In this document: positions 6,848-43,782 of the stretch, piece by piece
Numbering within the stretch: the first letter of the stretch is position 1
Layout: the number at the start of each line of letters is the position of its first letter
From: an uncultured Pseudomonadales bacterium
GTDB lineage: Bacteria; Patescibacteriota; Microgenomatia; UBA1400; CAYXSR01
NCBI GenBank assembly: GCA_964467735.1
Contig: CAYXSR010000001.1
Location: 108,839 to 172,838, forward strand
Length of the DNA stretch: 64,000 nt
Reading direction: 5' to 3'
The notes under the pieces: generated by a model
Databases searched by the model: none
The model's input: the letters and a program-made list of their open reading frames with translations, nothing else
What the model was told of the DNA's origin: nothing
Made by a program: the position numbers and the translations under genes

Positions 6848-6855
6848 TCCTACAA

Positions 6856-7731
6856 ATGCTTTCTAATTATCGCCAATTAATTGATGTTCGACAAACAACT
6901 GAATATGCAAAGTTTATGAAAAAAATTGGTTGGAAAATAAAAAAAACAGGTAAAATAAACATTTTTATTAAAAAACTTCCATTTTTACCTTTTTCAGTTA
7001 TAAAAATACTTCGATTTTCTACCCCTAATAAAGAAAAATTTATGACTGATGCTAAAAAAATTAAAAAAGAAAACAGAGCCTTAATATTTAAACTCCATCC
7101 TTTTATAGTCTCAAAATCAGATCAAATAGTTTTTAAAAATTTTAAATCTCAACAAGACAAGAATCCTTTAGTCCCGACCAAAACTATTTGGCTTGATCTT
7201 AATAAAAAAAATAATCAACTTTTGAAACAAATGAAGCAAAAGACCCGTTATAATATTCATTTATCCAAAAGTAAAAAAATTACAATAGAAATTGTTTCTG
7301 GTAATAAAATAAAATCACAATTATTAAATGATTTTTATCAATTATGGAAAAAAAATAAACCATTTAATTGGCTTTTTAAACCTTCCTTTCGGAATCTTCA
7401 AGCGCTAGTTTCTAGCTTTGAAAAAAAGTGTTTTTTAGTTTTAGCATCAAAAAATTCATTAATTGCTGGAGCTCTAATCTTAACATCTAAAAATATGGCC
7501 TTTTATTGGCATAATTGTTCAAACAAAGAAGGAAAAAAGTTGTTTGCTCCTACTTTAGTTATTTGGCAAGCAATTAAAGAGGCTAAACGAAGAAATCTTA
7601 AAATTTTTGATTTTGAAGGAATTTACGATTCTCGATTTCATAAGTTAATGAAAAACTGGCAGGGTTTCAGTAAATTTAAGAAAGGTTTTGGTGGCCAAAA
7701 AATACTTTTCTCCAAACCACTAAAAGTCTAG
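6856..7731 (+). CDS. FemAB-family transferase, shorter tandem paralogue
   Basis: 291 aa. The KTRYNIHLSKSKKITIE segment parallels KTRYNIRLAIKKGVTVQ of the upstream gene. The C-terminal NLKIFDFEGIYD motif corresponds to CKIFDLWGCLG in the paralogue. Confidence 0.55.
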   Translation: MLSNYRQLIDVRQTTEYAKFMKKIGWKIKKTGKINIFIKKLPFLPFSVIKILRFSTPNKEKFMTDAKKIKKENRALIFKLHPFIVSKSDQIVFKNFKSQQDKNPLVPTKTIWLDLNKKNNQLLKQMKQKTRYNIHLSKSKKITIEIVSGNKIKSQLLNDFYQLWKKNKPFNWLFKPSFRNLQALVSSFEKKCFLVLASKNSLIAGALILTSKNMAFYWHNCSNKEGKKLFAPTLVIWQAIKEAKRRNLKIFDFEGIYDSRFHKLMKNWQGFSKFKKGFGGQKILFSKPLKV

Positions 7732-9020
7732 TTTATCAATCTTTTTTTTCTTAAAAGAAGATGATATTTTTTGGCAAACCGATGAGACTCATCACGTAGT
7801 TGTTGGATTAGTCTTAGAAAAACAGAATTCTTCTTTAGTTTTATTTCCTGCCAACCAATAATATTTTCATCTCTAACTTTTGGTTTGATAATGATCTCTT
7901 CTTTTTTAGCTAAACCTAAAATAAGAATTTTCTTAAGCAAATGCCAACTTCTTAAAACATCAAATACTGCACTTACTTGACCTTTCCCGCCATCAACAAT
8001 TATTAATTCTGGGTAAGGCCATTCTTTATGTTTTAGTCTTCTTTGAACTACTTCTCTCATCATTTCTAAATCATCAGGTGTTGTAGAAAAAAGGATTTTA
8101 AATCGGCGATATTGATTCTTATTTGCTGAAAAGTTTTCAAAAACCACCATCGAACCAGTTGCTTCTCGACCATAAAGATTAGAAATGTCATAACATTCTA
8201 TTCTCTTTAAACTTTTTATTCCTGTCAAGAGTTTTTTTGCTTGTTTTAGAATATCTTTATCTCTATCTTTGGGAAGAAGCAAAGATAAACTTTCCTCATC
8301 CAAGGACTGCCAATTCAAAACTACATAATTTATTGCTTCTATCTGTTTTTTAATTTTGTTTGCTTTTTCAAAATCTAATTTATTGCTTGCTTTATCCATT
8401 TCCATTGTTAATTGTCGTATTACTTCACCTATGTCTCCATTTAGAAACTTAATTATCTTTCTAATTGTCTTTCGATATTCACTTTTTGGATAACCAATAC
8501 AGCATCCTGGACAAAGATTAATGTGATAATATAAGCAAGCTCTTTTTTTATTCCAGGTTTTAGAATTACAACTACAATATGGAAAAATTTGGCGGATAAT
8601 TCTTAAAACCCTCCTTACTTCTCCTGCTGAAGGAAAAGGACCAAAATACTTAGCTTTTTTTAACTCTTTTTTACGAGCGGTAAAAATCCGAGGATATTCT
8701 TCATCAGAAATACCAATCATCAAAAAACGCTTATCATCTTTTAATCGAACATTATAAAAAGGTTGATGTTTATTCACTAAAGCTGCCTCTATCAATAATG
8801 CCTCAAATTCAGATCGACAAATCCTAAAATCAATATCTTTAATTTGATCAACCATTTTTTTAGTAAGATATCCCTTGTTATTCTGAAAGTAACTTTTAAC
8901 TCTATTTTTTAGATTAACTGACTTACCAATATAAATAATTTTTCCATCGCTATTTTTAAAAAAATAGATTCCTGGTTTTTGGGGAAACTTATTAATTTTT
9001 TCTTTTAAATTTTTATCCAT
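7728..9020 (-). CDS. uvrC: Excinuclease ABC subunit C (UvrC), short form without the C-terminal (HhH)2 domain
   Basis: GIY-YIG domain GIYFFKNSDGKIIYIGKSVNLKNRVKSY and UVR motif EKANKIKKQIEAINYV. 430 aa, ending after the endonuclease-V-like region. Overlaps uvrA by 8 nt. Confidence 0.85.
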   Translation of the reverse strand: MDKNLKEKINKFPQKPGIYFFKNSDGKIIYIGKSVNLKNRVKSYFQNNKGYLTKKMVDQIKDIDFRICRSEFEALLIEAALVNKHQPFYNVRLKDDKRFLMIGISDEEYPRIFTARKKELKKAKYFGPFPSAGEVRRVLRIIRQIFPYCSCNSKTWNKKRACLYYHINLCPGCCIGYPKSEYRKTIRKIIKFLNGDIGEVIRQLTMEMDKASNKLDFEKANKIKKQIEAINYVVLNWQSLDEESLSLLLPKDRDKDILKQAKKLLTGIKSLKRIECYDISNLYGREATGSMVVFENFSANKNQYRRFKILFSTTPDDLEMMREVVQRRLKHKEWPYPELIIVDGGKGQVSAVFDVLRSWHLLKKILILGLAKKEEIIIKPKVRDENIIGWQEIKLKKNSVFLRLIQQLRDESHRFAKKYHLLLRKKRLIN

Positions 9021-11685
9021 GTTTAAAATATTTACTTAAAAATCTACCAGTATAAGAGTCTTTAGATTTAATTATATCTCCTGGTTTTCCTTGAGCTACG
9101 ATATAACCCCCAGCATTACCACCTTCAGGACCTAAATCAACTATCCAGTCAGCATTTTTAATTACATCCAAATTGTGCTCAATAACCACAACTGAATTCC
9201 CATTATCTACTAGCTTTCTTAAGATTAAAATTAATTTCTTCAAATCATGAAAGTGTAAACCAACAGTCGGTTCATCTAAAATATACAAAGTATTCCCTCT
9301 ACTTGGTTTTACTAATTCTCGAGCTAATTTTAAACGCTGTGATTCCCCACCAGATAAAGTTGGCGATGATTGACCAATTTGAAGATATTCTAAACCAATA
9401 TCCTTTAACTTCTCTAATTTATTTACAATAAAGGAAATAGGTTTAAAAAATTCCAAAGCTTCTTCAATTGTCATTTGTAAAACTTCATAAATATTTTTAC
9501 CATTCCACTCAACCTCTAAGACTTCTTCGATAAATCTTTTTCCATGGCAAACTTCACACTCAACCCAAATGTCTGGTAAAAATTGCATTTCTATTTTAAT
9601 TTCCCCTTGTCCTTGACAAGCTTCACAACGACCGCCTTTATTATTAAAGGAAAAGAAACTTTTATTAAAACCTTTAAATTTTGCTTCTTTTGTTTGAGCA
9701 AACAGGTCTCGAATCTCATTAAAAACTGAAGTATAGGTCGCTGGATTGGAACGAGAAGTTCTTCCAATCGGCGACTGGTCAACCATTAAAACTCTATCTA
9801 AATGCTCTAAACCTGAAATCTTATCAAATTCACCTGGTTTCTTTTCAAATTCTGCATTAAAATACTCTCTTACTGCACGATATAAAGTTTCTTCAATTAA
9901 AGTTGATTTTCCGGAACCAGAAACACCAGAAATACAAACAAAGCTGTTCAAAGGTATTCTAAAATCAATATTTTTTAAATTAAATTGACGACAACCACTA
10001 ATATTTAACCAGGACTGAACTAATTTTTTATTCTTTGGAAAGATAGGAATTTTTTTAACATTTGATAAATACATTCCAGTAAGAGATTTTTTATCATTTA
10101 TGATTTTATTTAAAGTGCCTTGAGCAACTATTTCACCACCCTTCTTACCAGCTAATGGCCCAAAATCAATTATCCAGTCAGCCTCCTTCATTACTTCAAC
10201 ATCATGTTCAATAATAATTGGATTATTACCAATATCACGAAGTCTTTTTAAAGTTTGAATTAATCTTTGGTTATCACGCGGATGTAAACCGACTGTTGGC
10301 TCATCTAAGATATACAAAACACCGGTAAGCCCGGTACCTATCTGAGAGGCTAATCTTATCCGTTGACCTTCACCGGTTGAAAGAGTTCCAGCAGTCCTTG
10401 CTAAATCTAAATAATCTAAACCCACTGCCAAGAGAAATTTTAGTCTTGTTCTTATTTCTTTTAAAATTGGTTTACTTATCTGTTTTTCTTTTTCTGATTT
10501 GATAATTTTTTCAAGCCTTCCAAACCATTCATCTAATTTATCTAAAGACATTAAACTCACTTGATAAATATTTTTATTATCAATAGTGACAGCCAGCGAT
10601 TCTTTTTTTAACCGAGCACCATGACATAAAGAACAAGACTCTTTAATCATTAATTTTTCGATTTCCTTACGAATATATTCAGAACTTGTATTATAATAAG
10701 TTCTCTCTAATCTCAAAGCTCTCCATTCAGGCACTTTACTTCTGTCAATAGTTAATTTTATTCCTAGACCTTTACATTTTTCACAAGCACCAACAGGGGA
10801 ATTAAAACTAAAACTATTTGGTTCAAGCCAAGATATAGAAATGTTGCATTTTGGACAAGCATAATGTTCAGAAAAAAGTTTATCGTGCCATACTTCTGGT
10901 TGATTCGAAAAAGAAAAACTTTTGTCATTAACAAAACTTAAAATCAAAAGTCCATCTGATAACTGAAGCCCTTGGCGAATTGCTTCAAATAAGCGTGAAC
11001 GAATAGATTTAAAATCTTTTAAATTGGAAGAGTTTATAATTAATCTATCTGTAACAACATCAATATTATGTTTATTATTCTTTAGAAGATTAATTTCTTT
11101 TCCCAAATCCATTAAATAATTATCAACCCTTACCAATTCATAGCCTTCTTTAATTAAATTACTAAATAACTTCTCAAAAGTCCCTTTTCTTTCTTTTACT
11201 ACCGGCGATAAAAGATAAATCTTTGCTATTCTTGATTGGCTAATTTCTGTTTTTATTTCTTCTTCTATTTGGTCAACAATTTCCTGAATTGATTGTTGAG
11301 AAATTTCTCGACCACAGGAAGGACAATGTGGATGACCAACCCTGGCAAAAAGCAATCGTAAATAGTCATAAATCTCTGTTACTGTTCCCACTGTTGAACG
11401 AGGATTAGAAGAGATACTTTTTTGATCAATGGCAATACTTGGAGATAAACCCTCGATTAAATCAACATCTGGTCGTCCAGAAGACTGTAAAAACTGTCGA
11501 GCATAAGCAGAAAGGCTTTCCACATATCTTCTCTGTCCTTCTGCATATAAGGTATCAAAAGCCAAAGATGATTTTCCGGAACCAGAAACACCAGTAAAAA
11601 CTACCAATTTATTCTTCGGAATCTCTAAATTGATATTCTTAAGATTATGTTCTCTGGCGCCTTTAATAATTATTTTATCTTTCAT
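9013..11685 (-). CDS. uvrA: Excinuclease ABC subunit A (UvrA)
   Basis: Two ABC modules ([15 protein letters not shown] and [20 protein letters not shown] signatures) and zinc-finger Cys clusters (CPSCG, CPKC...CEKC, CEAC...CEVCHGKR). 890 aa. Confidence 0.95.
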
Positions 11686-11799
11686 AAAATTAATCCTTAA
11701 TTTTTGAGAATAAAAACTCCGCCTCCTGTTAGCAACATATTACTAACATACGGCTGAGTTAATTATAGCAAACAAAGATTTTCTTGTCTTAAAAAGATT

Positions 11800-13794
11800 T
11801 TAATTAGTCTCAATTTCTAATATTTTATCTCTTATTTTTGCTGCTTGTTCAAAATCTAAATTTCTAGCATATTCGCGCATTTCTTTTTCTAGTTTCTTAA
11901 TTAGTTTTTTTCTGTCCTGAGGTGTTAATTGGTTTGGATCAATTTCTTCTTCCTCTTCTATTTCTTTTTCAATCAGCTTTGGTCTTATAGCTTTTTTAAT
12001 TGATTGGGGAGTAATGTTGTTTCTTTTATTATATTCCTGCTGTATTCTCCGTCTTCTTTCTACCTCTGAAATTGCTTGCCTCATTGCTTCACTCTCCTCA
12101 TCGGCATATAAAATCACTTTTCCTTTAACATTTCTAGCCGCCCGCCCCATAATTTGAATTAAACTAGTTTTAGAGCGTAAAAAACCTTGTTTATCTGCCT
12201 CTAAAATCGCTACCAATCCTACTTCTGGTAGGTCCAATCCCTCTCTTAAAAGATTGATTCCTACTAATACATCAAAATTGCCAGATCTTAAATCAGCCAA
12301 AACATCAGTTCTTTTTAGAGTATCAATATCTGAATGAAGGTAGGTAACTTTCAAATCAGTATTGGTTTTACTTGGATCAGATAAATAAGTGGCTAAATCT
12401 TCTGCTAGTCTTTTTGTCAAAGTAATTACCAAACTTCTTTGTCCTTGTTTCTTCTTTTGTTTAATTTGTTCGATTAAGTCTTTCACTTGGTTATCTGCAG
12501 GCAAAATTTTCACTGGTGGGTCTACAAGACCAGTTGGTCTAATAATTTGTTCAACTATTTTTCCATTACTTTTTTGAACCTCCCAATCTCCTGGAGTAGC
12601 CGAAACATAAATCCCTTGGGGAATTCTAGCCAAGATTTCATTAAACTTTAACGGTCGATTATCTAAACAAGAAGGAAGCCGAAAACCAAAATCAATAAGA
12701 TTTTCTTTCCGAGCAAGATCACCATAAAACATCCCTCGTAATTGAGGAATTGTTACATGAGATTCATCAACAACAACCAAAAATTTATCTTTATATTTGT
12801 AATTAAAATAGTCTAGTAAAGAATATGGTGGGTCGCCAGGATTACGACCATCAAAATATCGCGAATAATTTTCAATTCCATTAACATATCCAGTCTCGGC
12901 AATCATTTGTAAATCATAATTAACTCTTTTTTCGATCCTCTGAGCTTCTACTATTTTCCCTTGCTTTTTAAATAGACTTACTTGTCTTCCCTTTTCATCT
13001 TTAATAGTCTTAAAAATATTTCCTAAATCACCGGAAGCAGTTAAAAAATGTTTCGCCGGATAAATAGCGGTTGTCTCTTTTTCTTTTATTCTTTTATTAT
13101 TTAAACTAGCTATTTCAATTTTCTTAATCTTATTATTGTCAAAATAAATTTTAATAATTCTATCATCTGAATAAGGAAGAAAAATATCCAAACGATTTTG
13201 TCGTTGTCTAAAAGTTCCCGGTAAAAAATCAGCTGTTGCTCGCTGGTAGTAAAGTTCCACTAGTCGCTGGCCAACGGAAAACAAATCTTGCCTGTCACCT
13301 TTTTTTAACAGAATCGTTTGTTCTTTATATATTCCTGGGGCGCCAATATTATAAATACAAGAAACTGAAGCAATTACAATATTTCGAGGATAAGCAAAAA
13401 TATCGCTAGTAGCTTGAAGTCTTAACTGTTCAATTAGAGGGTTTATATCTACTTCTTTGGTAATATATGTATCAGATGCTGGAAGATAGGCCTCCGGTTG
13501 ATAATAATCATAATAAGAAACAAAATAAGAAACTGGATTGTTAGGAAAGAATTCTTTTAATTCTTGATAAAGTTGAGCCGCTAAAGTTTTATTGTGAGAA
13601 ATTATTAAAGTTGGTAACTGGCTTTCTTCGATTACCTTAGCAATAGTAAAAGTTTTACCACTGCCAGTAACTCCTAGCAATACTTGGTGTCTTTCTCCTT
13701 CTTCAAGTCCCTTTTTTAAAATTTCAATTGCTCGGGGTTGATCACCTCTTGGTTTAAATTTTGATTTTATTTTAAATTTATCCATACTTACCAA
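11800..13794 (-). CDS. uvrB: Excinuclease ABC subunit B (UvrB)
   Basis: Helicase motifs GVTGSGKT and VVDESHVT, and a C-terminal UVR domain DFEQAAKIRDKILEIE. 664 aa. Overlaps the upstream helicase-nuclease gene by 7 nt. Confidence 0.95.
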   Translation of the reverse strand: MVSMDKFKIKSKFKPRGDQPRAIEILKKGLEEGERHQVLLGVTGSGKTFTIAKVIEESQLPTLIISHNKTLAAQLYQELKEFFPNNPVSYFVSYYDYYQPEAYLPASDTYITKEVDINPLIEQLRLQATSDIFAYPRNIVIASVSCIYNIGAPGIYKEQTILLKKGDRQDLFSVGQRLVELYYQRATADFLPGTFRQRQNRLDIFLPYSDDRIIKIYFDNNKIKKIEIASLNNKRIKEKETTAIYPAKHFLTASGDLGNIFKTIKDEKGRQVSLFKKQGKIVEAQRIEKRVNYDLQMIAETGYVNGIENYSRYFDGRNPGDPPYSLLDYFNYKYKDKFLVVVDESHVTIPQLRGMFYGDLARKENLIDFGFRLPSCLDNRPLKFNEILARIPQGIYVSATPGDWEVQKSNGKIVEQIIRPTGLVDPPVKILPADNQVKDLIEQIKQKKKQGQRSLVITLTKRLAEDLATYLSDPSKTNTDLKVTYLHSDIDTLKRTDVLADLRSGNFDVLVGINLLREGLDLPEVGLVAILEADKQGFLRSKTSLIQIMGRAARNVKGKVILYADEESEAMRQAISEVERRRRIQQEYNKRNNITPQSIKKAIRPKLIEKEIEEEEEIDPNQLTPQDRKKLIKKLEKEMREYARNLDFEQAAKIRDKILEIETN

Positions 13795-16682
13795 ACAGGA
13801 CAGATTATTTTAAATGGACAGAAGTCGCAAAATGGTCCAGGAGTAGGATTAAAATTAGATTCTTTAATTTCTTCTGCTTTTTTAACTATTTCTTTTTTTG
13901 TTTGTTTTATTTGATCTTCTACCCTTTGAGTAGAGATTTTTTCTTGAGTTTCAAAAAAATAGAACGATAGTATTATGTTTTCTGGTTTTTGATTATAAAG
14001 TCCTGGGTCGGTAGCAGCCATCGCATAAAGAGTCATTTGTAAATCTTTATCAACTTCTTTCTTGCTCGCTAAACGACCAGTTTTATAGTCAATAATTTCT
14101 ATTTTTCCATCACTAAGCTTATCAATACGATCAATTCTACCACCTACTTTCAAACTTGGAGAAATTTTTAAAGTAAATGTTTGTTCTAAAGCAATCGGAT
14201 TATCTTCTTTCTTATAAGTTTTATTAAAAAATTCTATTAAAATCTTTTCCGCTCGTTGATACATTCTTTGTTCATGAGCTTTAGAATTATAACCTTCTTT
14301 TTGCCAATATTTTTTTAGTAATCCTATTAATTTATCTTTACTAACTGTAATACCGTCTCTAACTTGTTGATAAAAATCTTTTAAAACATTATGGATAGAG
14401 GTTCCAAAAGCCGCCGCCGCAAAAGTAGGTACGGGAATTTGTAAAAAATATTTATATTTATATTGCAACGGACACATTTTAAAAGTTTCTATTTGGGAAT
14501 AAGAAAGGAAATTTACTGGATAGATTATGTTTTGATTAATTAAAGTAGATTTTGTTTGTTTTACTGGTTGAAAATCAAAAATAGAAAGTTGACTTTCTTC
14601 TATATTTTTAATTTGGAGAGAATTTTTTATTTGTTCTATACCTAAAGTTTCATAAACAAAAGGAGAAATCTTTTTAATTCTTTTTGCTTCTCCGTAATAT
14701 TTAGATGCGGTAAGAAAAAGGAGATCTTTTGCTCTGGTCATCCCTACATAAAATAAACGCCGTTCTTCCTGCTCGTGAGAATCTCCTTCTGGTAAAACCT
14801 CTTCAATTAAATCATCTGGTATTGGAATTTGATCTTTCCTATCTCTTGTTGGAAAACGATCAGAAACTAAATTAACAATAAAGACTATTGGGAATTCCAA
14901 ACCTTTAGAGCTATGAATGGTTAAAATATTTACTTTATTTTCTTCTGTCCAATCATTATCTGAAGCTAAAGGAGACTCACCCATTTCTATTTTTAAATTA
15001 ATCCAATCAACTATTGCCTCAATACTATTATCTTCATGGTCCACTTCATAACTTTTTAATTTATTAAAAAATTTAGTAATATTTTCTGTTTTTTGTTGTT
15101 CCTTTTCTGTTTTTGGTTCTGCTAATTGCTGAAGTAGGCCAGAATCTTGAAGAAAATAGTAACTTATTTGACCACCAGTTTCTGTAGCAATTAATTTTAA
15201 ATGGCGATGAATCATGTCAACGAGCTTTTTAATTTTTTCTTTATTTTCTGAAGAAATAAAAAGTTTATCAGCTTGTTCGGCGGCCTCAAAAAAAGAAATA
15301 TTCATTTTCTTACTAAAATTCTTCAAAGCAGCGATATCCCGACTAGAAATATCAAAAACTGGTAACGATAAAACTCTAAAAAAAGAGACATTATCTTCAA
15401 AGTTATATAAAACTCTAAGATAAGCTATTAGATCTTTTACTTCATCTTGTCGGAAAAGTTTTCCTGGTCCTAAAAATTGAAAAGGAATACCATTTCTCAG
15501 AAAAGAGCTAACAAATGGTTCGGCATGATTGTTAGCTCTAACCAGAATAGCAATTTCTCCATACTTATATTGGCTTTTTTGATTAACAAGTTTTTTAATT
15601 TCTTTCACTACCGTATCGGCTTCATCTTCAACCCTATTACGAAATAAAAATTTAATTTCTTCTCCCTTAATCCGTCGATTAGATACTAATTTTTTATCGA
15701 TATTCTCTTTTACTTCCAAACGGTCAGGATTATTATTTTGAATCAATTTATATGCTTTATTTAGAATTTCTTGGGTTGAACGATAATTCTTTGTCAAGCT
15801 TATAATTTTAGTTTTGGGGTATTCCTGTTTAAATTGTAAAACATTAGAAATTGCTGCTCCTCGCCACTTATAGATAGATTGATCATCATCAGCAACAACA
15901 GTAAGATTGGCTTTTGTCCCAGCTAAAAGTATAACTAATTTATTTTGAGCAACATTTGTATCTTGAAACTCATCGACCAAAATATATTTGAATTTTTGTT
16001 GATATTTTTTCAAAATATTCTTTCTTTTTCTAAATAAATTTAGAGTATGAGTAATTAAATCGGCGAAGTCCATTAATCCTTCTTTTACTTTTAGTTCTTG
16101 GTACTTTCGATAGGCTTTAACCAACTCTAAATCTTTTTTAATCTCCTCTTTTTCTTTACTAGACTTTTTTTGTTGCTTCTCTAACCAATCAGAATATTTT
16201 TTTGGAGAAATGTCTTCATCTCTCAAACGATTGAAGTGAACTAAAAGGCCATTTAAAAATCTTGTCGGATTACCGGCTGGGCGATAATAATCAAGTTCAA
16301 AATCAAAAAGGTGCTTTTTCAAAAATAAAAGTGTCTCTGCTTCGGTCATCAAGGAATAATGAGGATCTAAACCAATATTTAATGCCTCATCGCGCAAAAC
16401 TCGATCACAAAATGCATGGAAAGTAGAAATCCACATTTGAAAACAACCCAAAGGCATAATTTCATCCACTCTTTGCTCCATCTCCAAAGCTGCTTTCTCG
16501 GTAAAAGTCAACGCTAAAATTTCTGACGGTTTGGCAATTTTTGAAGAAATTAAATGTTTTATTCTTTCGGTAACTACAGTGGTTTTTCCTGTACCAGCAC
16601 CAGCAATGATTAATAGTGGCCCTCGACCATACTTTATTGCTTGAAGCTGTTGTTGATTCAAAACCTTATTATCATCAACCAT
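13788..16682 (-). CDS. Fused UvrD-like SF1 helicase and C-terminal PD-(D/E)xK Cas4/AddB-type nuclease with a 4-Cys FeS-cluster signature
   Basis: N-terminal Walker A AGAGTGKTTVVTER, VDEFQDTN, and LFYVGMTRAK. C-terminal nuclease motifs GRIDRID, IEIIDYKTG and QMTLYAMAA. Cysteines are placed as FKMCPLQY near the start of the nuclease domain and CDFCPFKIIC at the extreme C-terminus (Cas4/AddB iron-sulfur arrangement). Confidence 0.8.
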   Translation of the reverse strand: MVDDNKVLNQQQLQAIKYGRGPLLIIAGAGTGKTTVVTERIKHLISSKIAKPSEILALTFTEKAALEMEQRVDEIMPLGCFQMWISTFHAFCDRVLRDEALNIGLDPHYSLMTEAETLLFLKKHLFDFELDYYRPAGNPTRFLNGLLVHFNRLRDEDISPKKYSDWLEKQQKKSSKEKEEIKKDLELVKAYRKYQELKVKEGLMDFADLITHTLNLFRKRKNILKKYQQKFKYILVDEFQDTNVAQNKLVILLAGTKANLTVVADDDQSIYKWRGAAISNVLQFKQEYPKTKIISLTKNYRSTQEILNKAYKLIQNNNPDRLEVKENIDKKLVSNRRIKGEEIKFLFRNRVEDEADTVVKEIKKLVNQKSQYKYGEIAILVRANNHAEPFVSSFLRNGIPFQFLGPGKLFRQDEVKDLIAYLRVLYNFEDNVSFFRVLSLPVFDISSRDIAALKNFSKKMNISFFEAAEQADKLFISSENKEKIKKLVDMIHRHLKLIATETGGQISYYFLQDSGLLQQLAEPKTEKEQQKTENITKFFNKLKSYEVDHEDNSIEAIVDWINLKIEMGESPLASDNDWTEENKVNILTIHSSKGLEFPIVFIVNLVSDRFPTRDRKDQIPIPDDLIEEVLPEGDSHEQEERRLFYVGMTRAKDLLFLTASKYYGEAKRIKKISPFVYETLGIEQIKNSLQIKNIEESQLSIFDFQPVKQTKSTLINQNIIYPVNFLSYSQIETFKMCPLQYKYKYFLQIPVPTFAAAAFGTSIHNVLKDFYQQVRDGITVSKDKLIGLLKKYWQKEGYNSKAHEQRMYQRAEKILIEFFNKTYKKEDNPIALEQTFTLKISPSLKVGGRIDRIDKLSDGKIEIIDYKTGRLASKKEVDKDLQMTLYAMAATDPGLYNQKPENIILSFYFFETQEKISTQRVEDQIKQTKKEIVKKAEEIKESNFNPTPGPFCDFCPFKIICPVW

Positions 16683-16683
16683 C

Positions 16684-17751
16684 TTAAGTTTCTTTTTTTA
16701 ATTGCTTAAATTCTTTTTCCGTATCTGCCTCTGATAGGGCTTGAGTAGAAGAAAGTTTTTGACCTAATAAAGAAAAGTTTTGTAGAACGTTAGAAAATTG
16801 ATTATAAGCATTATTAAGATGTTTGCCTAAAACTTGTAAAACTCCTTCTGTTTTTTCATAGTCTTTTTGGATTGCTCTTAAAAGTCGGAAGACTTGGCGC
16901 GAACGAGTTTCGATTTTCTTTCCTTCAAATGATAAAAGAATCATTTGAAGATGAGCATATAATGTTGTTGGCGAAACAGGATAAACACGATAGTGACGAG
17001 CAAGATCAGTAATATCAGAGATATTAACAATCTCATAATATACTGGCTCTGAAGGTATATACATTAGAGCAAAATCCATTGTTCCTTCTTCTGGTAGAAT
17101 ATATTTCTTCGAAATATCTTTTATGTGTTTTCTTACATCAGAAACAAAAACTTTTCTTATTTTATCTCTTTCTCCTTTTGTTTCCGCTTTAATCATCCTT
17201 TGAAAATTTTCCATTGGAAATTTAGAATCAATTGACAAAATACCAGCATCTGTTTTTAAAGCCGCATCTACTTTTTCTCCACTTTTAAAACTATATTGAA
17301 GATGAAAACTATTTTTGGGAAACATCTGGGAAATTAAATCTTTTAAAACTTCTTCACCAATATTTCCTCTAAGTTTGGGACTTTTTAAAAATTCTTGAAG
17401 ATCTTTCATTGATCGACCGATTTCACTCATCTGACCGACTTCTTTAGCAACTTTAGAAATATAATGAGCGGCATTATCTAAACGCTCATTCATTGCTTTA
17501 GTTGATTGATGAAGAGTATCAGAAATATTTTTATTAGTTAAATTGAGAACGTCCTGTAAGGTCCTTGATTGGCTTTGAAGTCCTCTTTGTAAATTATTAG
17601 TCCCTTTTTGTAAAGTCTCAATTACCCTTAAGAGGTTTTCATCAGTTTTATTATCTTTTACCAATTGTGTTAACTTACGACTAATAAACCATGTAAAAAT
17701 AGCTAAAGCAGAAATTATTAAAGCAACAATAAGATAAATTTCATTAGTCAT
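16684..17751 (-). CDS. rmuC: DNA recombination protein RmuC-like
   Basis: N-terminal TM segment, a long coiled-coil, and a C-terminal RmuC-type region. Its stop lies 2 nt upstream of the helicase-nuclease start, so the two are in an operon. Confidence 0.7.
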   Translation of the reverse strand: MTNEIYLIVALIISALAIFTWFISRKLTQLVKDNKTDENLLRVIETLQKGTNNLQRGLQSQSRTLQDVLNLTNKNISDTLHQSTKAMNERLDNAAHYISKVAKEVGQMSEIGRSMKDLQEFLKSPKLRGNIGEEVLKDLISQMFPKNSFHLQYSFKSGEKVDAALKTDAGILSIDSKFPMENFQRMIKAETKGERDKIRKVFVSDVRKHIKDISKKYILPEEGTMDFALMYIPSEPVYYEIVNISDITDLARHYRVYPVSPTTLYAHLQMILLSFEGKKIETRSRQVFRLLRAIQKDYEKTEGVLQVLGKHLNNAYNQFSNVLQNFSLLGQKLSSTQALSEADTEKEFKQLKKET

Positions 17752-29671: not shown

Positions 29672-30428
29672 AACTGCGATTCTTTATTCTCTACCTCCGT
29701 GTGAACTAGGATTTTGTGGCCCTAAACAAAAACAAGCTAAAAAAATTCTTCGGCAATTTATTCTGGGTAAAAAAGTAAATATTGCCAAAATCAAAAAGGC
29801 TTTAAAAAATTTTGAAGCTGCTTTTCCATATTATCAATTAATCGCTAAAGCCAATAATATTAAAGATGTTTTTAGTAAAAAAGTCGTTGAAGCTTATTGG
29901 CTAGGTAATGGTCTTTTAAAAAAAGTGAAATATTCAGATATTATTCATCTTATCCTCAGCCAGTTCTCCCAACCAGGTCTTTTAACTTTAAAAGAAGCCC
30001 AAAAACGAATAAAAAAAATCCCAAAGAGGGCTAAAGCTCATCATGTCTTTCATGTTTTTATTCTTGGTCCAATTGCTGGCAGAATTAATTTCACTCCTGA
30101 ACTTTTGGATTTATGTCGGGTTAGTTGGGGACAAATTATAAAAATAGAAAAAAACTCAAAATCTTTAAAAGTGAAAGTAAAAACTAAAACACTAATCATT
30201 CAGAACGGAAAATATGCCTTAGGGACAAAGATAATTAAACAAATTGAAGGAAATAAACACATTTTTAAAAACTTAAAGATTGGCCAGTGGATTAGTTTTC
30301 ATTGGAACCAAGTCTGTGATGTTTTAAATAACCAAAAAGTAAATGCGCTAAAATATTATACAAAAATTCACTTAATGAACAGCACAAGTAATACAGGGGT
30401 CAAAACTTCTAATAAGAATCTCAATTAA
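29652..30428 (+). CDS. Hypothetical protein with conserved Cys/His motifs (CELGFCGP, HHVFHVF), function unknown
   Basis: 258-aa ORF in the hypC-to-hydrogenase interval. Its 3' end overlaps the convergent hydrogenase large-subunit gene by 57 nt. Confidence 0.35.
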   Translation: MSIVGIKTAILYSLPPCELGFCGPKQKQAKKILRQFILGKKVNIAKIKKALKNFEAAFPYYQLIAKANNIKDVFSKKVVEAYWLGNGLLKKVKYSDIIHLILSQFSQPGLLTLKEAQKRIKKIPKRAKAHHVFHVFILGPIAGRINFTPELLDLCRVSWGQIIKIEKNSKSLKVKVKTKTLIIQNGKYALGTKIIKQIEGNKHIFKNLKIGQWISFHWNQVCDVLNNQKVNALKYYTKIHLMNSTSNTGVKTSNKNLN

Positions 30429-31619
30429 ATTATGTTGTTCTTCTATTGGCCGATTTTTATTTTGAGTTAGTAAACTAGTTGCCGCCTCTTCTATTGCTGC
30501 TAAATTTTGAGCTGTTGGAGTAAGAATATTACAATAAACTACTTTTCCATCTTTGACTTCAAAAGAATAATAAAGCGTTCCTCTTGGTGCCTCAATCGCT
30601 GCGCTTCCAACTCCTGATCTAAACGGTATCTCTACTTGAACTTCTTCTTGGGGACTTCTGTTAAACCAGTAAAGCAAATTTAATGCCTCCTCAAGAAAAT
30701 GAAAAATTTCTATTGCTTGAGCTACATTGATAAAAAATGGGTTTTTCTCTGGTAAAACAAGTGCCATATCTTTTAAAACTTTATTAGTTCTCCTATGAAG
30801 CCTATTTTTAAATTGATTAAGTCTGGAAAGTGCCCCGACTACAAAAGGTTTACTGGTAAACGAAGAATATTTTACTGGTGACCCATATTTTACCTGTTCA
30901 ATAATCAATTTTTGATAGTCGCCTGGGTCTGCCTTAAAACCAGTTAAACAACTAATTTGGCCATCATAATATGAATAATCCTTGTCGTTGTCTAAACAGA
31001 TCTGGGATGGATTAAAATTGCTAATCTTAGGGTATTCTAAGTGGCTAAAAATGCTAATTAGCTCCTCAGCACCAGAGAAAACCTGTTCGATATCTAGAAT
31101 TAAGGAAGATAGCCTGTCTCTATCTGGTTCTTGAGTAAACCCTCCCACCATCGGAGTAATCGGATGGACAACTCTGCCTGTAATTATTTCTAGAAGTCTG
31201 TCGCAGATTTTCTTTAATTTTAAAACCATATGGTATTCCACTGGATAAAGTTTAATTATCTCAATTCCTCTTTCTTTTTCAGGGGTAAAATCAGGCAAAA
31301 CAAGAAAAAAAAGGTGAATAAGGTGGCTGTTGATAATTTGACAGCAAAGCATTAATTTTCTTAAGTTGATAATTGTCTCATTTACTTTTACCCCTAAAGC
31401 GTTTTCTAAGGCTTTTATTGATCCTAAACTGTGAGCAACAGGGCAAATTCCACAGATTCTACAGGCAATAAAGGGAGCTTCCTGAAAATCCCTACCTCTT
31501 ACTAGCTGTTCAAACAGTCTTTCTCCCTCACTTACAACCAAATGAGCCTTATGATTAGCCATATCTAGCTTAAGATGTCCATGACCTTCGATTCTGGCAA
31601 TTAGATTAGATGTAGGCAT
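30372..31619 (-). CDS. [NiFe] hydrogenase large (catalytic) subunit, small cytoplasmic group-3-like type
   Basis: N-terminal Ni-Fe ligand motif RICGICPVAH. C-terminal ligand motif DPCITCAVH forms the last nine residues, i.e. there is no C-terminal maturation peptide. 415 aa. Overlaps the small-subunit gene by 14 nt. Confidence 0.9.
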   Translation of the reverse strand: MPTSNLIARIEGHGHLKLDMANHKAHLVVSEGERLFEQLVRGRDFQEAPFIACRICGICPVAHSLGSIKALENALGVKVNETIINLRKLMLCCQIINSHLIHLFFLVLPDFTPEKERGIEIIKLYPVEYHMVLKLKKICDRLLEIITGRVVHPITPMVGGFTQEPDRDRLSSLILDIEQVFSGAEELISIFSHLEYPKISNFNPSQICLDNDKDYSYYDGQISCLTGFKADPGDYQKLIIEQVKYGSPVKYSSFTSKPFVVGALSRLNQFKNRLHRRTNKVLKDMALVLPEKNPFFINVAQAIEIFHFLEEALNLLYWFNRSPQEEVQVEIPFRSGVGSAAIEAPRGTLYYSFEVKDGKVVYCNILTPTAQNLAAIEEAATSLLTQNKNRPIEEQHNLIEILIRSFDPCITCAVH

Positions 31620-32337
31620 TGAAAGAATTAATTAATTTATCTAGCTCTTCTTCTGGTAAAAAAGACAGTGTTTTCTTAATCATTTCTCGAGTAATTCCCT
31701 GTTTTAATCCCCAACATCCCCAACAGTATCTACCTGATTCGACACAAACCGCTCCACAACCAGCAAAAGTAAATACACCTAAACATTTCTTTTTCTGACG
31801 AACTAAACATCGTGAAGAATTAAATGGTCCCCGAGGACATTCAGTACAGACAGAAGTTTTTTTCTCTGGAGGAATTTTATCTTTTAAAAGATAAATTAAA
31901 GCCTCTTTTATTTGTTTAGGATTAGCTGGACAACCTCTAATAAAATAATCTACTTTCACATAACAATGGATTGGTTTTACTTCAAAGGCTCCCAATTTAT
32001 ACATTTGGTTATAGCTTTTATTCTTTGCTTCTTCCCTTGAAGATTGTTGGTTGAGGATTGATTGAATACCTCCTAAAGTAGCACAACTTCCCAAAGCTAC
32101 TAAGATTTTTGACTGTTGACGAATTTTTTTAATCCTTTGAATATCTTGACTATTGGTAATAACTCCTTCAACAATACTTATATCAAAGGGACCTTCAGTT
32201 TTAAAATCTGATCCCAAACGAAAGTTTACTAACTCATTGTCAGCGATTAAATCCATTAAAAATGTCCCTAAACCTAATAATTCAACCTCGCAGCCCTCAC
32301 AGTCAGTAAAGTCAAAAATAGCAATTTTTTTACCCAT
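31606..32337 (-). CDS. [NiFe] hydrogenase small (FeS) subunit, cytoplasmic, with no Tat signal
   Basis: Proximal-cluster cysteines DCEGCE, GSCA and GCP, plus a Cys-rich C-terminal third (CTECPRGP, CLGVFTFAGCGAVC, CWGCWG). No RRxFxK signal. 243 aa. Confidence 0.8.
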   Translation of the reverse strand: MGKKIAIFDFTDCEGCEVELLGLGTFLMDLIADNELVNFRLGSDFKTEGPFDISIVEGVITNSQDIQRIKKIRQQSKILVALGSCATLGGIQSILNQQSSREEAKNKSYNQMYKLGAFEVKPIHCYVKVDYFIRGCPANPKQIKEALIYLLKDKIPPEKKTSVCTECPRGPFNSSRCLVRQKKKCLGVFTFAGCGAVCVESGRYCWGCWGLKQGITREMIKKTLSFLPEEELDKLINSFNAYI

Positions 32338-38282: not shown

Positions 38283-40490
38283 ATGTTATCTATGAAGATT
38301 ATAAAACTAAAGAAATTTCTTTCTCATAAAAAAAATCTTTTTTTTATTGGAATTGTTTTTATTTTGATTGCTATCTCTTTTTATATCCTTAATGACCTAC
38401 CTTCTCCCACAAAACTTGCTAAACCAATTTATCCTGTCTCTACTCAAATTTTTGATCGGAATAAAAAACTTCTTTATGAAATATATAGTGATAAGAAACG
38501 CACCCCAATTAAACTATCAGAAATACCTGATTATGTAAAACAAGCCACCATTGCTATTGAAGACAAAAATTTTTACAAACATCAGGGTCTTGATTTTTCT
38601 GGTATAACAAGAGCTTTTTATAATATTGTTTTTAAAAAAAATATTCAAGGCGGTTCGACAATTACTCAGCAATTAATTAAAACAGCCCTTCTTACTCCAG
38701 AAAAAACAGTAAAAAGGAAAATCAGAGAAGCAATCTTGGCTTTTTTAACTGAAATTATTTATACAAAAGATGAAATTTTAGAAATGTATCTTAATTTTAT
38801 TCCATACGGTGGTACTTCCTATGGTATAGAACAGGCGGCAAGAACTTACTTTGATAAACCAGCAAAAGATTTAAACTTAGCTGAGGCGGTTCTTCTTGCT
38901 GGATTGCCAGCTGCTCCTACTCGTTTCTCACCATTTGGGGTAAATCCAAAATTAGCCGAAGAACGACAGCATCAGGTCTTAAGTAGAATGGTAGAAGATA
39001 ATTACATTAGCGAGGAAGAGGCGGAAAAGGCTGAGAATGAACCTCTCAAATTTACCTCCCAAACTACAGATATTAAAGCTCCTCATTTTGTAATGTATGT
39101 TAAAGATTTATTAGTAGAGAAGTATGGACAAAAGATGGTTGAGCAAGGAGGGTTAAGAGTGATTACTTCCTTAGACCTAGATATCCAAGAGTTTGCTCAA
39201 CAGACTGTTGCTTCAGAAGTTGCTAAATTAAAAAACATGAATGTTGGAAACGGAGCTGCTTTGGTTACTAAACCACCAACTGGAGAAATACTAGCAATGA
39301 TTGGTTCAAAAGATTACTTTGATACCGAGAATGATGGAAATGTGAATGTGACTACTAGCCTAAGACAACCTGGTTCTTCAATTAAACCTATTAATTATGC
39401 CGTTGGTCTCAAAAAGGGATATACGCCGGCAACTCTGTTTTTAGATATTCCTACTTGTTTTTCAATACCCAACCAGCCGCTTTATTGTCCTCATAACTAT
39501 GATGGAAAATTTCACGGACCTGTTCAGATGCGCTTTGCTTTAGGTAATTCTTTCAATATTCCAGCAGTAAAGATGTTAGCTTTGAATAGTGTCCAAGACA
39601 TGATCGATACTGCTTCGGCAATGGGAATTAGTACCTGGGAAGATCCCAGCCGTTATGGATTATCATTAACCTTAGGAGGCGGTGAAGTAAAAATGGTTGA
39701 TATGGCCGTTGCCTTTGGTGTCTTTGGTAACCAAGGTAAAAAAATAGGCCTTGATCCAATCTTAAAAGTATATGATTATCAAGGAAAGGTCTTAGAAGAA
39801 AAGGACTTAGAAAATCACCCGCCGGCCGGAGAAAATGTTTTAGATCCACAGGTAACCTATCTTATTTCCCATATTCTTTTAGATAACAATGCTCGGACAC
39901 AAGCTTTTGGACCCAGCTCACAATTAGTTATTCCTAATCATGCAGTCTCTGTTAAAACAGGAACCACTGATGATTTAAGGGATAATTGGACAATTGGTTA
40001 TACACCTTCATTCTTGGTTAGTAGTTGGATTGGAAACAATAACAACTCACCAATGCATCCTTATTTAGTTTCTGGAGTAACTGGTGCCGCCCCGATTTGG
40101 CATAAAATAATGAGCTATGTTTTAGAAGACAAACCCGATGAGTGGCCTAAGAAACCAGATACAATTATTGGCCGTCATACTTGTCAACAACAAGAAGGAG
40201 AAGAAGATAATTGTCTTGGGGATAGATTTGAATATTTTATCAAAAACAACGATGCAAAAGTCTTTAATGGTAAAATTGAAAAAAAACAAATTTGGATTGA
40301 TAGAGAAACCGGCCGCCCACCTGAACCAGGAAAAGTAGATAACCTTGAACTCCAAGAACATACGGTTGCTTCTGATGCTTTTGTAAAAGATTATTGTCTA
40401 AGTTGTCCCCATGAAAATGAAAAACCAGTTGTTGTTAGTTACCCAGTTATAAATCAAGAGTCAATAATAAACTTTCCTTCTAATAATTAA
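38283..40490 (+). CDS. Class-A penicillin-binding protein (bifunctional GT51 transglycosylase/transpeptidase), copy 1
   Basis: GT51 motifs AIEDKNFYKHQG and GGSTITQQL. Transpeptidase motifs SSIKP (SxxK), SFN and KTGTT. N-terminal TM. An alternative start is at 38292 (MKIIK). Confidence 0.85.
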   Translation: MLSMKIIKLKKFLSHKKNLFFIGIVFILIAISFYILNDLPSPTKLAKPIYPVSTQIFDRNKKLLYEIYSDKKRTPIKLSEIPDYVKQATIAIEDKNFYKHQGLDFSGITRAFYNIVFKKNIQGGSTITQQLIKTALLTPEKTVKRKIREAILAFLTEIIYTKDEILEMYLNFIPYGGTSYGIEQAARTYFDKPAKDLNLAEAVLLAGLPAAPTRFSPFGVNPKLAEERQHQVLSRMVEDNYISEEEAEKAENEPLKFTSQTTDIKAPHFVMYVKDLLVEKYGQKMVEQGGLRVITSLDLDIQEFAQQTVASEVAKLKNMNVGNGAALVTKPPTGEILAMIGSKDYFDTENDGNVNVTTSLRQPGSSIKPINYAVGLKKGYTPATLFLDIPTCFSIPNQPLYCPHNYDGKFHGPVQMRFALGNSFNIPAVKMLALNSVQDMIDTASAMGISTWEDPSRYGLSLTLGGGEVKMVDMAVAFGVFGNQGKKIGLDPILKVYDYQGKVLEEKDLENHPPAGENVLDPQVTYLISHILLDNNARTQAFGPSSQLVIPNHAVSVKTGTTDDLRDNWTIGYTPSFLVSSWIGNNNNSPMHPYLVSGVTGAAPIWHKIMSYVLEDKPDEWPKKPDTIIGRHTCQQQEGEEDNCLGDRFEYFIKNNDAKVFNGKIEKKQIWIDRETGRPPEPGKVDNLELQEHTVASDAFVKDYCLSCPHENEKPVVVSYPVINQESIINFPSNN
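38865..39352. repeat. Copy A of a 488-bp near-identical block shared by the two PBP genes (462 bp perfectly identical, 38891..39352)
   Basis: Direct nucleotide comparison at a constant offset of 2459 bp from copy B. The only mismatches are at 38873 and 38890. Flanking gene sequence is diverged. Confidence 0.85.
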
Positions 40491-40552
40491 CTTTGATTAA
40501 TTAAATTAATTATATCTTTCATCTCTCAATATTTCTTGATAAAATTAAAACA

Positions 40553-42802
40553 ATGAAATATTCAGCGACAGGAAGAGATATAATTAACTTCAAAAAATTA
40601 TTAAAGTCTATTCGTTTTTGGATTTTATCATTTCTAGAAAATATTGGCCGGCTAACTTATAGAACTATCTTTCTTATTTTAGGAATTATTTTTAACTCTC
40701 TCATATTCTTAATTCAATTAATTAAACTTTTTAGAAGATATATAAAAAGATTTCTAGCTACTGCCAAGCAACAACTTCTAAGAATTCGTTTTATTATTTT
40801 ATTTATCTTCTTATTATCTTCTGGAAGTTTTTATTTTTTTATTATTCGTGAACTTCCTAATCCTGAAAAACTATTAAACCATGAACCTATCATTTCAACA
40901 AAGATATATGATAGAAAAGGACAGCTTCTATTTACCATTTTTAATGGTAGTCAAAAAAGATCTTTTGTTAAACTTTCCGATATTCCCAATCATGTAAAAC
41001 AAGCTACTATTGCCATCGAAGATAAAGATTTTTATAAACATCCTGGGTTTTCTTCAAAAGCAATTATCAGAGCAGCTTGGAAAAATATTTTTAATAATTC
41101 TTTGCAGGGAGGATCTACCATAACTCAACAATTAGTTAAAAATGTCTTTTTGACTTCCGAAAGAACGTTTAAGAGGAAAATAAAAGAAATAATTTTAAGT
41201 ATTCAGATGGAGTTAATTTTTAGCAAAGATGATATTTTACAAATGTATTTAAATGAAGTCCCTTACGGTGGTACTGCTTATGGCATCGAAGAAGCATCTC
41301 AAATGTATTTTAATAAAAGTGTTAAAGATTTGAACTTAGCTGAGGCGGCTCTTCTTGCTGGATTGCCAGCTGCTCCTACTCGTTTCTCACCATTTGGGGT
41401 AAATCCAAAATTAGCCGAAGAACGACAGCATCAGGTCTTAAGTAGAATGGTAGAAGATAATTACATTAGCGAGGAAGAGGCGGAAAAGGCTGAGAATGAA
41501 CCTCTCAAATTTACCTCCCAAACTACAGATATTAAAGCTCCTCATTTTGTAATGTATGTTAAAGATTTATTAGTAGAGAAGTATGGACAAAAGATGGTTG
41601 AGCAAGGAGGGTTAAGAGTGATTACTTCCTTAGACCTAGATATCCAAGAGTTTGCTCAACAGACTGTTGCTTCAGAAGTTGCTAAATTAAAAAACATGAA
41701 TGTTGGAAACGGAGCTGCTTTGGTTACTAAACCACCAACTGGAGAAATACTAGCAATGATTGGTTCAAAAGATTACTTTGATACCGAGAATGATGGAAAT
41801 GTGAATGTGACAATAATGCCTCGCCAACCAGGAAGTGCGATTAAACCCGTCAACTATGCTGTTGCTCTTTCAAATGGTTTCACTCCGGCGACTTTAATTG
41901 CCGATACACCGATTACTTATCATATTGCTGGTTCCTCACCATATTCGCCAGTAAATTATGATCAACGATTCCATGGTATGGTTACTTTAAGAACTGCTCT
42001 AGGATCCTCATATAATGTTCCGGCAGTAAAGACTTTATCCATTTTTGGTGTTGATAAAATGGTCGAAATGGGGAAGAAAATGGGAATCACCACTTGGGAT
42101 GATCCTAGTCGTTATGGGCTATCATTAACTTTAGGAGGAATTGAAGTAAAAATGGTTGATATGGCCGTTGCCTATGGAACTTTAGCTAATCAAGGAACAA
42201 GAGCCGATTTACAACCAATCTTAGAGATCACTGATTATAAAGGAAAAGTTTTAGAAAAATACCAACCTTCTGAACAGAAAAAATCAAATTATGTTTTAAA
42301 TCCAGGAGTAAGTTATCTTTTAAATAATATTCTTAGTGATAATCAAGCTCGGACACCGGCTTTTGGACCCAATTCTCTTCTATCAATTCCTAATCAGCAA
42401 GTAGCAGTTAAAACAGGAACTACCAATGATAAAAAAGATAATTGGACAATTGGCTATACTAGTGGTTTACTGACTGCTGTCTGGGTTGGAAATAATGATA
42501 ATTCTCCTATGAATGCGGTTGCCTCTGGGATAACCGGTGCTTCTCCGGTTTGGAATAAAATAATGAGCTATTTATTGGAAAATACTCCCTCTCATAAGTT
42601 TTTTATTCCCAATGGAATTAAAACTGTTCAAATTTGCAGTTTTAACGGGTTGCTTCCTTGTGATGGTTGCTTAGTAAAAAATGAATATTTTCTTGAAGGA
42701 ACAGAACCTAAATATCATTGCGACAGTGAAAAGATGAAAACTTTTACCACTCAATCAAAAGATAATCAACAAATACTTGAAGGAATACAGACAGTAAATT
42801 AA
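40553..42802 (+). CDS. Class-A penicillin-binding protein, copy 2 (tandem paralogue)
   Basis: AIEDKDFYKHPG, GGSTITQQL, SAIKP, SYN and KTGTT. N-terminal TM. 749 aa. Confidence 0.85.
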   Translation: MKYSATGRDIINFKKLLKSIRFWILSFLENIGRLTYRTIFLILGIIFNSLIFLIQLIKLFRRYIKRFLATAKQQLLRIRFIILFIFLLSSGSFYFFIIRELPNPEKLLNHEPIISTKIYDRKGQLLFTIFNGSQKRSFVKLSDIPNHVKQATIAIEDKDFYKHPGFSSKAIIRAAWKNIFNNSLQGGSTITQQLVKNVFLTSERTFKRKIKEIILSIQMELIFSKDDILQMYLNEVPYGGTAYGIEEASQMYFNKSVKDLNLAEAALLAGLPAAPTRFSPFGVNPKLAEERQHQVLSRMVEDNYISEEEAEKAENEPLKFTSQTTDIKAPHFVMYVKDLLVEKYGQKMVEQGGLRVITSLDLDIQEFAQQTVASEVAKLKNMNVGNGAALVTKPPTGEILAMIGSKDYFDTENDGNVNVTIMPRQPGSAIKPVNYAVALSNGFTPATLIADTPITYHIAGSSPYSPVNYDQRFHGMVTLRTALGSSYNVPAVKTLSIFGVDKMVEMGKKMGITTWDDPSRYGLSLTLGGIEVKMVDMAVAYGTLANQGTRADLQPILEITDYKGKVLEKYQPSEQKKSNYVLNPGVSYLLNNILSDNQARTPAFGPNSLLSIPNQQVAVKTGTTNDKKDNWTIGYTSGLLTAVWVGNNDNSPMNAVASGITGASPVWNKIMSYLLENTPSHKFFIPNGIKTVQICSFNGLLPCDGCLVKNEYFLEGTEPKYHCDSEKMKTFTTQSKDNQQILEGIQTVN
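41324..41811. repeat. Copy B of the same block (perfect identity 41350..41811)
   Basis: Identical to 38891..39352. Both copies are in-frame and encode the same 154-aa segment (…AGLPAAPTRFSPFGVNPKLAEERQHQVLSRMVEDNYISEEEAEKAENEPLKF…GNVNVT). Confidence 0.85.
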
Positions 42803-43782
42803 TCGTTTTTATTAAACTGCCAAAAAATCTTAGAGATTTTTGGAAGAGCATCCAGGGCTTCGTCTTCAGATACTTCTTTAGTTAAAATGCATAAAACATA
42901 AGGATTTTCAGCAAAAACAATGCCGCAATCATTATATGTTTGAATCTCATTTCCAATTTTATGAACTACTCTAATATTCTCTGGAACTCCTTTAGGAATT
43001 CTATCTTCAAAGGCAGTATCAATTAGGGCGGCAAAAATTTTCTCTTTATTTCTTTCTTTCAACAAAGAACCTTCATAAAGAGCAGCAAAAAAATTACCCA
43101 TTTCTTTAGGAGTTGTTATATTATCTGCTAATAAAGTATTAGTTGCCCCAAGTTTATTTAAAGTGCTTTGAATTTTGCTTCTTCCAATAATTTTTTCCAA
43201 AACATAAGCGGCCGTATTGTCAGAGATTTTCCCTGATAATTCAACAAGTTCACGATAAAAATATTTTGTTCCTAAAGATTGATATCTCATTTGACCTGTT
43301 CCATAATCCTGAACATCTTGTTTTTGTAAGAAATATTCGCCCTCTTCTTTAAGTCTTTCCACTTCTACTTCTTGATAAAAAGCAACCATAATCGGAACTT
43401 TATTAACAGAGGCGGCAGTAAAAACTTCATTCTCATTAAAACCCAATTCTATGTCTTTTTGCAAATTAAAATAATAAACACCGTAAACACCACGAAGCTC
43501 AGAAACTAAAGAATCTAAAGAATATAAAACATCTTCTTTATTTTTGAAACCGCTTGTATCTTTTGCGACCTTTGAAGAATTCTTAGTTACTTCATAAACA
43601 AAAGGTTGTTGAAAGCCTTCAAACCAATTAAGTCTTTTACTCCTCAGCCAAAAAATAGCAGAGATTAAAACAGAACCAAGTAAAGTTACTAAAGTTATTA
43701 TCCTTCTTTTTCTCTTTACTCTTTTATTATCTTGTTTATCACTAAGTTTATTATCGAGAAGTTTTTCCCTTGTAATTTGCAT
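42799..43782 (-). CDS. Class-A beta-lactamase-like serine hydrolase, membrane-anchored
   Basis: SVNK (SxxK), SDN and KIG (KTG-type) motifs in the canonical order. N-terminal TM. 327 aa. Confidence 0.6.
   Translation of the reverse strand: MQITREKLLDNKLSDKQDNKRVKRKRRIITLVTLLGSVLISAIFWLRSKRLNWFEGFQQPFVYEVTKNSSKVAKDTSGFKNKEDVLYSLDSLVSELRGVYGVYYFNLQKDIELGFNENEVFTAASVNKVPIMVAFYQEVEVERLKEEGEYFLQKQDVQDYGTGQMRYQSLGTKYFYRELVELSGKISDNTAAYVLEKIIGRSKIQSTLNKLGATNTLLADNITTPKEMGNFFAALYEGSLLKERNKEKIFAALIDTAFEDRIPKGVPENIRVVHKIGNEIQTYNDCGIVFAENPYVLCILTKEVSEDEALDALPKISKIFWQFNKND

Follow-up and report, generated by a model that had tools for sequence, protein, structure and literature searches.

How did two adjacent genes for class A penicillin-binding proteins (PBPs), diverged over most of their length, come to share a block of 462 identical nucleotides? 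The question is raised by a 64,000-nucleotide stretch of contig CAYXSR010000001.1 (assembly GCA_964467735.1, positions 108,839 to 172,838 of the forward strand), hereafter the window, which comes from an uncultured bacterium placed in the Microgenomatia. The answer that we consider very probable is a recent non-reciprocal homologous recombination (ectopic gene conversion) between ancient tandem paralogues. The features on which the argument depends are the following.

38283-40490, + strand: gene 1, class A PBP of the A-type lineage, 735 amino acids, assigned from its open reading frame (ORF), Pfam and PDB matches and the grouping of its flanks; probable donor of the tract
40553-42802, + strand: gene 2, class A PBP of the B-type lineage, 749 amino acids, assigned from its ORF, Pfam matches and the grouping of its flanks; probable recipient of the tract
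38891-39352, + strand: tract copy 1, gene 1 residues 203-357, identical at 462/462 bases to copy 2 at offset 2459
41350-41811, + strand: tract copy 2, gene 2 residues 266-420, the presumed converted segment, which scores as A-type
38865-38890 (gene 1) and 41324-41349 (gene 2), + strand: left transition zone, encoding LAEA(V/A)LLAGL, 24/26 identical

Both products have the composition of class A (bifunctional) PBPs, with an N-terminal GT51 glycosyltransferase (GT) domain carrying EDxxFxxHxG and GGSTITQQ and a C-terminal acyl-serine transpeptidase domain carrying SxxK, SxN and KTG. In the translations the motifs read EDKNF, GGSTITQQ, SSIK, SFN and KTG in gene 1 and EDKDF, GGSTITQQ, SAIK, SYN and KTG in gene 2. 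Pfam matches both genes to Transgly (PF00912, E = 3.2e-61 for gene 1 and 2.2e-65 for gene 2) and to Transpeptidase (PF00905, E = 1.8e-13 and 4.1e-22, respectively), and both proteins align to the PBP1a structures 4OON, 5U2G and 3UDF, as well as to S. aureus PBP2 over the full length. The genes are separated by 62 nt; the reading frame of gene 2 is intact, and the catalytic motifs and the frames are kept in both. Read from its first ATG, with the start codon taken as called, gene 2 carries about 63 extra N-terminal residues relative to gene 1, located before the membrane anchor (40553-40740), and the B-type orthologues likewise tend toward a longer N terminus.

The first-pass annotation of the window had given the two ORFs the limits listed above, both on the + strand, and had described between them a 488-bp stretch with two mismatches, the last 462 bp being identical at a constant offset of 2459; our recount gave the same values. 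Within the 488 nt (38865-39352 versus 41324-41811) the genes differ at 38873 (A/G, third codon position, synonymous Leu) and at 38890 (T/C, Val/Ala), after which all the bases agree, and the conversion tract has its left end at some point within the 38865-38890 zone. Outside the tract the identity of the two genes is only 61.5% at the nucleotide and 51.5% at the amino-acid level, so the uniformly high identity that a simple recent duplication would leave is not seen. The same codon is used at only 56% of the identical amino acids there, which means that the synonymous sites of the flanks are essentially saturated. The right border is as abrupt as had been claimed: the conserved peptide RQPGS(S/A)IKP, which follows immediately after 39352, is spelled with different codons in each gene, and the 154 identical codons of the tract are therefore not due to protein conservation. 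At a background identity of about 65%, an exact run of 462 nt would arise by chance with a probability of about 1e-83, and there is no comparable repeat elsewhere within the 64-kb window.

With respect to the encoded protein, the Pfam limits (transpeptidase start at residue 324) and the Aquifex GT domain 2OQO, which matches gene 1 residues 62-252 in alignment, agree with the earlier description of the block as spanning the transglycosylase end, the linker and the transpeptidase start. The tract runs from the last part of the GT51 domain (its final helices) across the interdomain linker and ~35 residues into the transpeptidase domain. It ends in ...GNVNVT, about 8 residues before the serine of SxxK, and SxxK, SxN and KTG all lie outside it, the latter two far downstream. 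Its GC content (0.36-0.39) resembles that of the neighbouring gene body and reveals no compositional anomaly, the window as a whole having 31.6% GC. The tract aligns gap-free to PBP orthologues at an amino-acid identity (58-72%) similar to that of the flanks, and no Rfam family matches it. A mobile element, an intein, an intron or an RNA element was rejected on the strength of the gap-free PBP coding, the lack of an Rfam match and the unremarkable GC content.

The age of the two genes can be judged from the nearest relatives, which are metagenome-assembled genomes (MAGs) of Microgenomatia (Candidate Phyla Radiation (CPR)/Patescibacteria) labelled Beckwith-, Chisholm-, Shapiro-, Levy-, Roizman- and Woesebacteria. 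A tandem arrangement, in which an A-type copy is followed by a B-type copy side by side on the same strand, recurs in at least 28 of the 80 related loci. The A and B copies in those other genomes are 50-61% identical in nucleotide sequence along their whole length, and their longest exact run does not exceed 34 nt, with a single exception (locus L005). In neighbour-joining (NJ) bootstraps of the C-terminal flank, gene 1 grouped with the A copies and gene 2 with the B copies in 200/200 replicates; for the N-terminal flank the corresponding figures were 191/200 for gene 1 with A and 156/200 for gene 2 with B. Because tandem A/B pairs occur in the relatives, the flanks group with two separate lineages and A and B are only 50-61% identical, the split between gene 1 and gene 2 predates the radiation of this class of bacteria, and the comparison with orthologous pairs thus bears out the initial view of the genes as old paralogues. 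The identical tract is a late overlay on these old paralogues and no remnant of a recent duplication, an origin that was rejected in view of the saturated flanks, orthologous to two lineages. The exact tract, its sharp borders (462/462 against 61.5% in the remainder of the genes), the unchanged reading frames and the ancient flanks, assigned to two separate orthologue lineages of greater age, together make up the signature of gene conversion.

No close strain was found in any of the collections searched. The best homologue of gene 2 in a search of 5.8 billion clusters is 63% identical, that of gene 1 among the GTDB species representatives is 69% identical, and matches in the Joint Genome Institute (JGI) metagenomes do not exceed 65% identity; both PBPs are singletons among ~15 billion sequences. 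Some of the records of the relatives, such as L001 (CAYPXO010000003.1), are titled "uncultured Pseudomonadales" or "Gammaproteobacteria bacterium" despite their Microgenomatia-like PBP loci, and on several third-party annotation (TPA) MAG records these titles are probably wrong taxonomic labels.

Which of the two genes supplied the tract was approached with A and B hidden Markov model (HMM) profiles of the tract segment built from the orthologues, each sequence being scored with its own copy left out. The A genes had A minus B differences of +7 to +38 bits, positive in 28/28 cases, and the B genes -27 to +6 bits. The tract of the window, at +14.8 bits, falls within the A range and beyond the B range, and its right half alone reaches +12.8 bits versus a B maximum of +3.5. 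In the NJ analysis the tract stood beside L001_A and had A-type sisters in 123/200 bootstraps; in most close relatives (L003, L004 and L006) the similarity to the tract is 6-9 percentage points higher for the A copy than for the B copy. Strictly diagnostic alignment columns that would separate A from B are absent from the tract. Since the tract, and clearly its right half, scores in the lineage of gene 1, gene 1 was probably the donor and gene 2 the recipient, a conclusion that we hold with moderate confidence; the direction of transfer in the left half is one that we infer. The tract inside gene 2 is thus A-type, in phylogenetic discordance with the rest of the gene, with moderate NJ support.

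Shorter tracts of the same kind are present in other genomes. Among 95 same-locus PBP pairs from 160 related loci, scanned for exact matches without de-replication of the pairs, the longest exact run was below 24 nt in 74 pairs, while six contained runs of at least 40 nt (40-166 nt), all found by the exact-match scan.

L005: 95 nt, 10952-11046 = 13447-13541, gene-1 residues ~329-366
L083: 78 nt, 304-381 = 2910-2987, gene-1 residues ~329-366
L085: 73 nt, 4714-4786 = 7115-7187, gene-1 residues ~329-366
L108: 40 nt, gene-1 residues ~329-366
L120: 45 nt, gene-1 residues ~155-212, end in LLAGLPAAPT
L153: 166 nt, 3788-3953 = 6358-6523, gene-1 residues ~155-212, end in LLAGLP

The island at gene-1 residues ~329-366 corresponds to ILAMxGSKDYF...GNVNVT...RQPGSS, and the tracts of L120 and L153 fall in the conserved island to which the left transition zone of the window belongs. 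The six tract-bearing loci are only 63-74% identical to one another at the nucleotide level and use different codons within their tracts, so the identities must have arisen independently; and since six divergent genomes carry shorter exact tracts in one or the other of the two islands, patchy conversion recurs in this gene pair, which supports the proposal of recent gene conversion or homologous recombination made in the first-pass annotation. The tract of the window begins in the LAEAxLLAGLPAAP island and stops in the ...DGNVNVT island, and it looks like the extreme member among the small conversion patches of this pair. Such events are rare, as only 7/96 pairs, the window included, show any tract.

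Several observations weigh against a conversion of gene 2 by gene 1, or against particular parts of this scenario, and they are best considered along with the rival explanations. Only one contig shows the tract in both genes, no second assembly of the species being present in the searched collections, and recA is not seen in the 64-kb window. The first of these points touches on the possibility of an assembly artefact, rightly raised in the first-pass annotation, or of a polishing artefact, in which the assembler or a consensus step would have copied the paralogue's segment over a diverged original: the contig (177,593 bp) is metagenome-assembled, its sequence was found only once, and an exact repeat of 462 nt exceeds the usual short-read k-mers. 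Collapse or mis-polishing, however, needs near-identical copies, and at ~60-65% identity the reads of one segment are not mapped to the other; moreover, four in-frame junctions at exactly homologous positions (offset 2459) need real spanning sequence. The tandem A/B order agrees with the conserved synteny, similar shorter tracts, some of them below the typical k-mer length, appear in six independent assemblies of different projects, and the window contains no other anomalous repeat. An artefact is mechanistically unlikely, and we give it only a very slight chance of accounting for the block. Even less credence, to the point of near dismissal, is due to the idea that the identity is kept by selection at the DNA or RNA level, or that a mobile or foreign segment was gained by both genes independently. 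The identity itself would fit such an origin and no further support for it was found, while the ordinary gap-free PBP coding sequence, the GC content and the Rfam result given above speak against it and the same region is diverged in 89/95 of the other pairs.

The direction of transfer is where the contrary evidence is most concrete. The left half of the tract scores +1.9 bits, inside the ranges of the A and the B genes alike, the single nearest sequence to the tract by distance is L001_B, and B-type sisters were obtained in 67/200 bootstraps. Such figures would be predicted by a transfer with gene 2 as the donor, or by two or more events that did not all run the same way; but the scores of the whole tract and of its right half fall within the A range and exceed every B value, and the greater similarity of the A copies of L003, L004 and L006 also argues for gene 1 as the source, so that a reverse or composite history appears unlikely, with a small chance of being correct. 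A further difficulty concerns the ends of the tracts. Their clustering at two islands is no more than suggestive of an island-anchored model, because, in the averaged A/B identity profile, the GGSTITQQ and KTG regions are conserved equally or more and yet carry no tracts. It is likewise doubtful, although we would leave it a minor share of the probability, that patchy conversion with ends preferring the two islands (at the GT51 end and the transpeptidase start) is a recurrent lineage-wide feature of Microgenomatia, in which the swap of the whole linker module would be retained through shared partner or interdomain geometry, as concerted evolution of a linker or regulatory module and not neutrally.

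If gene conversion from gene 1 is accepted, the event may be pictured as follows. A double-strand break or gap would arise in gene 2, and its two broken ends would find gene 1, in the same chromosome or in its sister, and anneal there within two short near-identical islands; the diverged interval would then be re-synthesised from the gene-1 template, so that ~460-490 bp of gene 2 would be overwritten by the matching segment of gene 1. Break or gap repair is favoured over heteroduplex migration because donor and replaced DNA presumably shared ~60% identity, and gap repair would explain how the tract could cross ~60% identical sequence without a heteroduplex through it. Both this mechanism and a dependence of the event on RecA are presumed. 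The product of gene 2 would now be a chimera in which an A-type linker module connects the B-type catalytic cores. Consistent with a capacity for recombinational repair, genes for an AddA/RecB-like helicase-nuclease and RmuC are found in the window, beside those for UvrABC and PcrA/UvrD, so that end-processing functions are present.

The repair genes form a dense cluster within positions 3979-17751 of the window:

3979-5790, + strand: PcrA/UvrD helicase
5807-7731, + strand: two FemAB-family genes, amid the repair cluster
7728-9020, - strand: UvrC
9013-11685, - strand: UvrA
11800-13794, - strand: UvrB
13788-16682, - strand: AddA/RecB-like protein, UvrD-helicase with a PD-(D/E)XK nuclease domain
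16684-17751, - strand: RmuC

Among the known systems, the closest parallel by analogy is interparalogue gene conversion of the kind seen in tufA/tufB and in the rRNA operons. Intragenomic gene conversion and concerted evolution are established for tufA and tufB in Salmonella and E. coli and for rRNA operons, and there too non-reciprocal homologous recombination between duplicates in one genome gives rise to identical tracts in separate loci. The tuf and rrn copies, however, are near identical over their full length through frequent conversion, whereas the present pair consists of ancient paralogues of ~60% identity with one patch of 462 nt (40-166 nt in the relatives).

The mosaic PBPs of resistant bacteria, to which the tract had initially been compared, are a different matter. 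The mosaic pbp2x, pbp2b and pbp1a of Streptococcus pneumoniae and the penA of Neisseria received their blocks from other species by transformation under beta-lactam selection, and the blocks alter the active-site region of the transpeptidase. What holds of the comparison is the sharply bounded block of other ancestry brought into a PBP gene by homologous recombination. In our case, by contrast, the neighbouring copy served as the donor, and even the closest sequence from beyond the contig is only ~63-72% identical; the tract, moreover, halts just before SxxK and leaves out SxN and KTG; nothing points to drug selection. The analogy fails on two testable features, since the donor was no other species and the active-site motifs are uninvolved, and beyond a loose analogy the data lend no support to a connection with the resistance mosaics of pneumococci. 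In Neisseria pilE/pilS and Treponema tprK, programmed conversion serves antigenic variation and relies on silent donor cassettes and dedicated cis elements, at high frequency. Those systems and the PBP pair have in common that an expressed gene receives segments copied from a donor locus, but the two PBPs are both full-length housekeeping enzymes and the events are rare here. Our literature search turned up neither PBP paralogues nor PBPs of CPR bacteria for which conversion had been described.

The surroundings of the pair consist of ordinary chromosomal genes, such as those for guanylate kinase, the transketolase halves, ribulose-phosphate epimerase, GAPDH, GroEL and a NiFe hydrogenase, and, besides the repair cluster, of cell-wall genes (M23 peptidase, L,D-transpeptidase, FemAB and LytR-CpsA-Psr). 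Two of the neighbouring features are:

42799-43782, - strand: predicted membrane-anchored serine hydrolase of the Beta-lactamase2 family (Pfam PF13354, E = 6.8e-47)
30372-32337, - strand: NiFe hydrogenase large and small subunits (NiFeSe_Hases, Oxidored_q6)

The former gene, which had been noticed downstream of gene 2 as class-A beta-lactamase-like, an assignment in keeping with the Pfam match, is convergent with gene 2, overlaps it by 4 nt and lies outside the conversion. Its product has an N-terminal hydrophobic anchor and the motifs SVNK and SDN, with KIG replacing KTG. In 11 related loci of Microgenomatia (L001, L002, L003, L006, L016, L019, L021, L026, L028, L030 and L036) a homologue is likewise found a short distance downstream of the B-type PBP gene and on the opposite strand. 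This suggests a conserved cluster of PBP-A, PBP-B and a class-A-like serine hydrolase with a role in the cell wall rather than an acquired resistance gene. The NiFe hydrogenase genes adjoin a DUF6390 gene and an EamA transporter, a context typical of CPR fermentative metabolism.

The main value of the observation is for the annotation, the orthology assignment and the read mapping of these genes. Whole-gene phylogenies or orthology calls are misled by the chimeric gene 2, and short reads cannot separate the two genes across the 462-nt stretch. The finding says nothing on antibiotic resistance. As a direct repeat with its copies 2,459 bp apart, the 462-nt tract would also be a substrate for a deletion of 2,459 bp that fuses the GT domain of gene 1 to the transpeptidase domain of gene 2. 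In general terms the locus is a clean new example of a known process, to which the independent conversion patches of the same pair in several lineages make a small addition. It indicates that homologous recombination operates between paralogues of ~60% identity in a reduced-genome CPR bacterium, and the small patches found in the same PBP pair across independent lineages provide a modest means of studying recombination in unculturable organisms.

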